64,000 nt of DNA from Octopus sinensis (lineage: Eukaryota): positions 3,100,001 through 3,164,000 of the forward strand of contig NC_043017.1 in the NCBI RefSeq assembly GCF_006345805.1, given 5' to 3'. This document shows, piece by piece, positions 28,741 through 30,447 of the stretch. The translations under genes and the position numbers were made by a program. The stretch's first letter is position 1. The number at the start of each line of letters is the position of its first letter. A model generated the notes under the pieces. It made no database searches. It saw only the letters and a program-made list of their open reading frames with translations, and was not told where the DNA came from.

Positions 28741-29402
28741 ATGTACGAAATAAATTAACCACACAATACGTACAGCAACACCGGGTTGTTAATTTGTTTA
28801 CTGGAAGGCGACACTTTTCTCTGTTGATGCATCCAAAAGTCACATTTGACAAACCACATCTATAGATCTAGACCTTTCTAGATTCTTCTTCATTTGTCTT
28901 TTTCAAGTCAACCAGAAACAGATCAATGCTTCCCCCATCGCAACACAGCAATTGAGCTTTCGATTCCCATACAATATAATTTAAAGTTATATGCAGTTCC
29001 AACTTTATTACTGGCAATGTCTGGTGAACTCAACTTCACCATTTATATTCAAACCGGTCATATCAGGCCAAAATATTTAATCTGTTTTATATGGAAACTG
29101 ACCAGATCCAACCTTTCTCACCAGCCCTACAATGCCATTCTAAAATTAAACAATCACATCATTGAAATCTCAAAGCTGATAATCCTTTCTGCTATAGGCT
29201 AAACAGCGGTGGTGTAACCCCCTACTGTCACGTTCACGTTAGATTGACAGTATACAACCATTCTATCGCCCCACTACCGTACATATCTCCTTGAGAGATT
29301 TAGAAATTTAATATTTCTGATTTTGATAATCAGTGAATAAGCTTCACTGAAAATTAGATATATATACATTTGCGAATCGCGACAGAGATTCGCGGCTGAC
29401 GG

Positions 29403-30085
29403 TTTTTTTTTTTTTTGTTTTGTCGGATATTTTGGATTACGTTTATTGTTGTGTCGCGGTTGTGAGTTCGAATTCGTTGGTGGAAGCTGTTACGGCGTGG
29501 TGAATTGTGGAAGTTTTTTTTTTGGAAAATGCAAGCCCAAACTTATGCAGGAGCGGCAGGCAGGGGTCTGGCTACGAGCGAACTGCAGTTGGAGGAGGTT
29601 TTTGTCGAGAAGAAGAGCCTGAAGGAATACTTCAACAGTTTCAAGAAGGAGGGTGACTGCCCGAGAGTCACACCACCAGAAGACGAAGTGAAAGAAGCAG
29701 AGATGCGTATCGTGACATATAGAACGTGGAACGTGGCTTCGAAGAAAATAGAAGTGACAGAGGTGGATGAAATTGAGAAGTGTTTGCAGGAGATTGAAGA
29801 AAAAACTACCTTCTATAATAGAGGTAAAAAGTACGCAACGTGGTAGTTCATTTTGAGAACGAAGCTGAAGCAAAGAAGAACGCTACAAAAATACTGAAAA
29901 ATGAAAACAAAATTGTATTTTAAATGAAACTGCGAGCCTGGGGAACTCGTAAGACATTCCATTAACCCATTATAAATAATTCATTTTCATACCATACTTT
30001 TCGATCTTTTTATTATATGTACCCCATGTCCTGTCTTGTAATGTCCCCTCTTAATTCGGGCCATTGTGCCTATAATAAAGATATT
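29403..30085 (+). mobile_element. Internally deleted non-LTR retroelement (L1/Tx1-like ORF1 start) with 15-bp target-site duplication
   Basis: TSD ATTCGCGGCTGACGG at 29388-29402 and 30086-30100; ORF MQAQTYAGAAG...; 3' AATAAA. Confidence 0.6.
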
Positions 30086-30111
30086 ATTCGCGGCTGACGG
30101 GCATCTGCTAC

Positions 30112-30158
30112 TCTAGACCGATGAAGAACAATGATCCTGAAACATGCGTGTCTCTAGA
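30112..30158 (+). ncRNA. Type I hammerhead ribozyme fold (CCGAUGA core variant) in candidate retrozyme
   Basis: TCTAGA-CCGATGA-agaacaatgatcct-GAAA-CATGCGTG-TC-TCTAGA; GUC site. Confidence 0.6.
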
Positions 30159-30447
30159 TGCCGGCCTGCCTGCTGGGGGGGGGGTGTTTGTCTCCCCTTC
30201 GTAAATGTATATAAAGACACGGGAAAAAATGTATCGAAGCAATCAGAAAGCGTCGATGCTTCCTAGGGCTAAACAGCGGTGATGTAATCCCCTACTGTCA
30301 CGTTCACGTTAGATTGACAGTATACAACCATTCTATCGCCCCACCACCGTACATATCTCCTTGAGAGATTTAGAAATTTAATATTTCTGATATATATAAT
30401 ATATATATTATATTCATACACACGTACATTCAAACCGTTTTATATAT

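Follow-up and report, generated by a model that had tools for sequence, protein, structure and literature searches.

The insert that interrupts a hammerhead repeat in the window (the whole 64,000-nt stretch of DNA analysed here), together with its LINE lineage, is the more unusual part of the locus than the ribozyme repeat. We consider it probable that this lineage is promoterless and targets Pol II start sites, as predicted from promoter motifs, landing in sense at the predicted +1 and using host promoters. Insertion in sense at the predicted +1 means that the host promoter would transcribe the LINE, and target choice of this kind, with a borrowed promoter, would be new for a LINE.

The locus in the window

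The first-pass annotation had described a hammerhead-bearing, retrozyme-like monomer hidden by a later insertion, and its geometry was confirmed. The direct repeats of 125 bp (29197-29321 and 30267-30391, 3 mismatches) lie 1070 bp apart, an exact 15-bp duplication (29388-29402 and 30086-30100) flanks the insert as claimed, and a period of 372 nt is indeed left once the insert is removed. All parts lie on the forward strand. By sequence comparison the first part (29197-29402) is a 5′-truncated family A hammerhead repeat, which comprises the monomer 3′ part, the predicted promoter and the first 15 nt of the predicted transcript. Within it, ATCAGT (29329-29334) stands at -59 from the duplication start and is predicted to be an snRNA-type proximal element, since U1 and U2 genes are preceded by this motif at an equal distance; a TATA-like stretch (29359-29366), presumably functional, starts at -29, and A29388, the first base of the left duplication copy, is the predicted +1. 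Next comes an ORF1-only LINE derivative with an internal deletion (29403-30085), which has a T-rich 5′ end, an ORF remnant (truncated ORF1 of 105 aa, 29529-29846) and the 3′ end TATAATAAAGA plus 4 nt. The right duplication copy opens the second repeat copy (30086-30391), which contains the hammerhead motif and stops at the usual 3′ terminus of the family, followed by (TA)n.

The window also contains a colinear segmental duplication (7132-27618 and 28738-42306, 85-97% identity), and the annotation had placed the element exactly where the match between the two units stops. The match to 7132-7594 stops at 29199, with a 3-nt overlap GGC (29197-29199) between the hammerhead repeat and the matching flank. 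Matching to the other unit restarts only at 30501 against 14640, so that 7 kb of that unit are absent and the window offers no clean empty site. Stated from the other side, 7595-14640 of the first unit is missing from the second where the hammerhead element sits. Long GGT/GGC-rich triplet tracts (27317-28022 and 42074-42979) occur in both units, and a tRNA gene with a CAT anticodon lies at 6943-7014 on the reverse strand.

The single GUC hammerhead reported at 30112-30158 was confirmed as a type I motif with its GUC at 30150-30152 and predicted cleavage after C30152 (+67); it is the sole match of a motif scan over both strands of the 64-kb window. Its parts are stem I (TCTAGA/TCTAGA), the core CCGATGA, stem II, GAAA and stem III CATGCGTG. 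Rfam at gathering score did not detect it, and isolated stretches of 53-81 nt neither folded into a hammerhead nor rose above shuffled sequences in single-strand folding (z -0.2 to +0.2). Stem III is complementary to itself, with a dimer pairing energy of -12.5 kcal/mol; the dimer would be the active form. Stem II of the window copy is weaker (-2.2 vs -5.5 kcal/mol) because an A at 30127 replaces the G of the family, a mismatch that is absent from the commonest family variant. The core variant CCGAUGA is the most frequent one in family A. Across related hammerhead families the pair type differs in all three stems, a result partly conditioned by a filter that demanded the inner pairs and not the outer ones.

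A high-copy repeat with Penelope-type ends

A search of its own genome with the monomer gave 1983 candidates, with 72 matches from the 40 scored, and the reconstructed monomer proved to be multicopy, with many non-coding, hammerhead-bearing copies of retrozyme size. The monomer is thus a high-copy, non-coding repeat, and it has Penelope-type ends: copies stop at two fixed points ~55 nt apart and pass into (TA)n or AT-rich DNA, and an adjacent inverted copy is present at 19 of the 29 other monomer loci, some of which are duplicates (L018 and L030 are duplicates; L028 and L029 look like one locus). Two tandem hammerheads 364 nt apart were found at one locus only among 58 partly overlapping loci, a lower bound from an exact-motif scan. 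Of the claimed retrozyme-type tandem repeat, therefore, the sequence features hold, but the copies show Penelope-type ends and not long tandems.

The reconstructed monomer junction exists natively. Among the 30 best hits to 29322-29402, the sequence runs into the hammerhead in 27 cases and into the insert family in 3 (the window included). The annotation had itself raised the case of a monomer that is only the terminal repeat of a coding Penelope element; none of these 30 promoter hits leads into a Penelope ORF, and in this non-exhaustive search no autonomous Penelope element (RT and GIY-YIG ORF) bounded by the hammerhead repeat was found among them. We consider it very improbable that the monomer is merely such a terminal repeat, with no circular RNA and with an incidental insertion site. 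It is true that the ends, the tail and the (TA)n targets are Penelope hallmarks, that no circle was seen, and that one Penelope element is described, in the accessible text of PMC11167929, as having no reads that end at the ribozyme site. Apart from the 30 promoter hits, however, Penelope ORF pieces near family loci lack the hammerhead repeat at their ends, and the insertion site recurs at dozens of loci. A candidate Penelope partner beside one repeat locus was rejected, as its 30 loci end in a CT-rich tail without hammerhead repeats; likewise, Penelope ORF fragments at L018/L030, L020 and L175 merely adjoin repeats, the repeat being absent from their ends.

Folded as a circle, the native 364-nt unit reaches -131.6 kcal/mol against -90.6 ± 5.5 kcal/mol for 60 shuffles (z -7.5). 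The window copy has a single hammerhead and hence cannot release a unit circle. In contigs of presumed-RNA runs neither a circle nor a start was seen; a tandem back-junction equals the genomic junction, and contigs cannot show starts. Judged by its sequence, the monomer has the features of a non-LTR retrozyme (a type I hammerhead in a non-coding unit of 170-400 nt, multicopy with tandem units) together with those of a non-autonomous Penelope-type element (partial tandem, inverted 5′ copy, tail, AT-rich target). It fits the known animal hammerhead repeats as a candidate non-LTR retrozyme of Penelope type, for which cleavage and circles are putative.

The available parts of the literature describe mussel non-LTR retrozymes as repeats of 350-390 bp (PMC7229834) and interpret animal retrozymes as non-autonomous Penelope derivatives (bioRxiv 10.64898/2026.07.22.740005, a 2026 preprint). 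The family shares with metazoan non-LTR retrozymes a non-coding unit of 364-372 nt, a type I hammerhead, many copies and a highly self-paired predicted circle. It differs in consisting mostly of 1.3-mers and inverted pairs, with cleavage and circles at the putative stage, and in that a LINE pinpoints the predicted promoter and +1, whereas the accessible retrozyme texts mention no LINE targeting. With Penelope-like elements it has in common the partial tandems, inverted 5′ copies, one-sided tail and (TA)n or AT-rich targets given as hallmarks in the accessible text of PMC8557442 and PMC11167929, as well as a hammerhead in the repeat; unlike in those elements, no RT or GIY-YIG ORF was found linked to the window repeat, and the tail measures ~55 nt against 30-40. 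A Penelope-type enzyme acting in trans may copy the repeat into (TA)n, which would give rise to partial tandems and inverted 5′ copies.

The insert and its LINE lineage

The claim that an insert hides the monomer was right about a real, later insertion, but the insertion is no accident: it is a site-specific LINE derivative at the predicted transcription start. A true later insertion with target duplication is supported. The 698-bp insert derives, by deletion, from an ORF1-only element of 1.64 kb, itself a derivative of an L1-group (Tx1-like) LINE lineage. It is 93% identical to full 1.64-kb elements, with ~960-975 bp missing after 29905, so the window copy has, after inserting, lost ~960 bp and its reading frame. 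Full 1.64-kb copies encode ~445 aa with a CCHC-type knuckle (the zf-CCHC profile match is below cut-off) and no RT. The protein had no homologue in a protein search and no Pfam family above cut-off; compared directly with ORF1 of a 5.5-kb LINE, it is 29% identical over 207 aa (E 5e-30), and both elements have the 3′ end TAATAAAGA. ORF2 of the 5.5-kb LINE contains apurinic-type endonuclease and RT domains and matches human L1 ORF2p over residues 5-868 (E 3e-62). In its predicted composition, then, the full-length partner is an L1-group LINE, with ORF1, ORF2 (apurinic-type endonuclease, RT) and target duplications. A genome search with part of it gave 21,519 candidates, and the relatives found carry no informative names. 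We call the lineage L1-group and, provisionally, Tx1-like; target preference, a trait of the Tx1 clade, is present in it.

It may be asked if repeat, ORF1 and repeat form one composite element, Penelope-like with a captured gag-like gene, which was amplified whole and has the 15 bp as a terminal redundancy. Several composites do lie inside Penelope-type inverted structures (L032, L045, L047), and the accessible text of PMC8557442 describes an algal Penelope-like family that combines a hammerhead with a zinc-knuckle ORF. We nevertheless give this explanation hardly any credence, as the empty junctions are the majority (27/30) and the same insert occurs in different repeat families, in head-to-tail arrays (L049, L050) and after full-length LINEs. 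Moreover, divergence among 8 family-B composites is 0.3-0.6% in the LINE against ~3% in the flanks (Spearman 0.01), the flanks being 6-8 times more divergent, and the window insert belongs to a 100/100 clade of 8 inserts whose hosts are of family A (5), B (2) and C (1). The uncorrelated divergence and the one clade spanning three hosts indicate that the insertions are independent and largely refute a composite. The insert was also considered as the body of a Penelope element; this was dropped after the varied hosts, the LINE-like ORF1, the independent flanks and the native empty junctions.

Targets of the lineage

The counts for LINE and ORF1-only loci refer to best-scoring, mostly young copies and are no census. 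Of the 40 principal ORF1-only loci, 38 were inspected, the window among them; of the other 37, 29 adjoin a hammerhead unit at the same position, 5 belong to arrays or complicated joins and the last 3 lie in other targets (by eye). For the LINE, 89 ORF2-bearing loci out of 145 were taken, and the 3′ end was located in 80. The neighbour at this end is a hammerhead unit in 38 (45 pattern calls minus 7 false ones removed by eye, the lenient pattern having a background of 6.8%), another LINE after a short target piece in 13, U2 in 1 and something else in 28; three rows of this table were moved by eye. At least five hammerhead-repeat families (A, B, C, D and F/G) carry insertions at one position, in sense, and families A and C have only a 54-nt stretch in common. 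The target duplications measure 11-20 bp in 31 of 33 cases, with a median of 17. Subfamily and target are correlated, one LINE 3′-end type being always in family A (6/6) and another mostly in B and C. At five loci (L049, L050, L043, L266, L267) two or three LINE or ORF1-only copies form head-to-tail arrays with a short target piece between them, i.e. repeated insertion at one site.

Spacing of promoter motifs at the insertion sites

The motif ATCAG(T/C) lies 57-61 nt before +1 at 19 of 20 U2 loci and 14 of 14 U1 loci, and upstream of U6 at 0 of 10; the U2 locus without this spacing is the one interrupted by a LINE. The same motif precedes the first ATC of the duplication by 57-61 nt at 10 of 12 LINE junctions and in the window, where chance would give ~0.2% per site, and an AT-rich block near -85 is likewise shared (by eye). 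The insertion position is thus likely to be the predicted +1 of the hammerhead monomer, a start deduced from motif spacing, and each repeat unit would contain a U1/U2-like promoter. An internal snRNA-type Pol II promoter has been reported in another hammerhead repeat, newt satellite 2 (Coats et al. 1994, as cited in the accessible part of PMC2220036); there the promoter was shown by experiment, whereas here it is predicted from motif spacing. If true, this would extend the newt result to a mollusc and give invertebrate retrozymes a predicted promoter, polymerase and +1, which the consulted portions of the retrozyme literature do not give; promoter terms are absent from the available part of PMC2837043. 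One LINE sits at the U2 +1 itself (L058/L158) and duplicates U2 nt 1-14, and U2 and family B both have ATCGCT at +1.

Non-hammerhead targets were tested with one representative per target type having a resolved duplication (12; these were not picked blind, and some of them may be related to one another). TATAWAW starts at -35 to -26 in 8 of the 12, seven of these at -29 to -31, and in those 8 the duplication begins 29-34 nt after the TATA box; as background, the motif was present in 3 of 84 upstream windows and at 5.3% of random positions (binomial P 2e-8). A strict TATA is absent in the other four (L262, L294, L299, L181). Left out of the test were L284 and L296, which lie inside LINE bodies, and, among others with the left duplication not resolved, L270, L272, L280, L283, L289, L290, L295, L301, L305, L309 and L312; at L270 and L283 promoter motif and left duplication are both absent.

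Many TATA targets are short tandem non-coding units, possibly related. Units of this kind with a TATA box and no hammerhead seen occur at L256, L267, L293, L294, L299 and L300; those of L256 and L299 end in (TA)n, L256 with an inverted part, and the group may represent ribozyme-less Penelope-type passengers. At L194 (650-1080 and 2680-3601, as oriented) an ORF1-only element lies 30 nt after TATAAAAA; its host unit contains a CCAAT box and, further downstream, AATAAA, and may be a solo LTR. Where U1 and U2 have ATCAGT, the U6 loci L102, L107, L110 and L111 carry the motif ATGC(A/T)AAT together with a TATA and a GCCT block common to them.

Foreign 5′ leaders and the choice of target

In several LINE copies the left duplication is followed, ahead of the LINE 5′ end, by the first bases of a different target, and these foreign leaders begin at, or at most 3 nt from, +1 of the previous target. 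The U2 insertion L158 has a family-B leader from the family-B +1, L176 has a family-A leader in a B site (L040 is similar), L292 and L294 carry leaders of one TATA unit inside two others, and L270 starts with an exact U1 nt 1-17. These leaders are most simply explained by LINE RNA that begins at the +1 of the host, in which case the element would need no promoter of its own. The LINE ORF2 protein would nick near +1 and ~14-18 nt downstream and so duplicate the first transcribed bases, the pattern that is observed. In hammerhead hosts, speculatively, the ribozyme could trim read-through RNA at +67. A degenerate U1-like leader also stands ahead of a LINE at L274:7329, in an array beside the U1 gene cluster.

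Ordinary targeting by sequence or RNA homology, combined with survival, is an explanation that we consider unlikely but take seriously. Here each subfamily recognises its own target, via the endonuclease or via pairing of read-through RNA with the nicked target, and lineages that once fell at start sites were expressed and spread, the promoter itself not being read. The correlation of subfamily with target (6/6 in family A for one 3′-end type) agrees with this, as do ATCGCT at the +1 of U2 and family B, the ATACTT that the L270 target shares with its U1 leader, and the existence of off-target copies; among the latter, the L284 and L296 insertions inside LINE bodies also count against start-site targeting as such, and so do the four targets with no strict TATA, the sites L270 and L283, and the possible kinship of several TATA targets. 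On the other hand, the duplications share little sequence across families, yet the ATCAGT or TATA spacing is fixed; one-off targets with a true duplication and a foreign leader (L158, L194, L294) fall at +1 too; survival would not demand +1 over any downstream site; and 5′-truncated, dead copies are also on target (L169, L300). Since subfamilies keep to one target family and ATACTT recurs at L270, sequence or RNA homology would also play a part in start-site targeting.

Start-site targeting may go further. It is quite possible, though we stop short of favouring it, that the lineage recognises the Pol II initiation site as such, probably via the initiation complex or DNA opened at the start, and inserts at +1 of whatever short promoter is active (snRNA- or TATA-type). 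Its 5′ end would then accumulate the initial bases of its earlier hosts, and it would be a parasite of the ribozyme repeats, themselves parasites. The insertions would record start sites like a fossil map, and the protein would be a natural integrase directed to them. The usual view of target-specific LINEs is that the endonuclease picks out one short sequence. A LINE site set by distance from two promoter types would, if true, represent a new principle of LINE targeting and would allow direct tests of protein contacts with the Pol II start machinery.

Comparison with known elements

Ty3, Tf1 and TRE5 are promoter-directed retroelements whose integration is placed relative to the transcription machinery. 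Together with R2, they resemble the present lineage in such placement or in reliance on host transcription; they differ in that their targets are Pol III genes, wide promoter regions or a single rDNA site, and not the predicted Pol II +1 of snRNA-type and TATA promoters. R2 is cotranscribed with its host according to the accessible text of PMC4494074. An octopus repeat annotation lists active L1-Tx1 families, and its main text, in the part available, leaves hammerhead, retrozyme and target unmentioned (PMC13282606). Our literature search found no LINE that targets hammerhead repeats or a Pol II +1; Repbase, figures, subscription papers and supplements may hold such families.

The closest comparison is with the target-specific LINEs of the Tx1 clade, namely Tx1 (in Tx1D), Keno (U2), Kibi/Koshi and Tx1-Mar, for which we used the accessible parts of PMC4494074 and PMC4640811. 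Elements of this clade prefer U2, microsatellites, DNA transposons and some LTR elements (PMC4494074), and share with our lineage an apurinic-type endonuclease and RT, a zinc-knuckle ORF1, insertion into other repeats and U2, and tandem arrays at one site. Keno and Utopia are described as inserting before U2 nt 39 (PMC4640811), unlike the LINE here, which duplicates U2 nt 1-14 and so does not share the Keno position. The present lineage further differs in that many different target sequences are tied together by promoter spacing and in the existence of an ORF1-only non-autonomous form. Near five U2 loci (L087, L092, L095, L097, L100) we also observed a repeat of ~390 nt with ends that we take to be Helitron-like, which carries a 65-nt piece of the family B/C monomer 3′ region.
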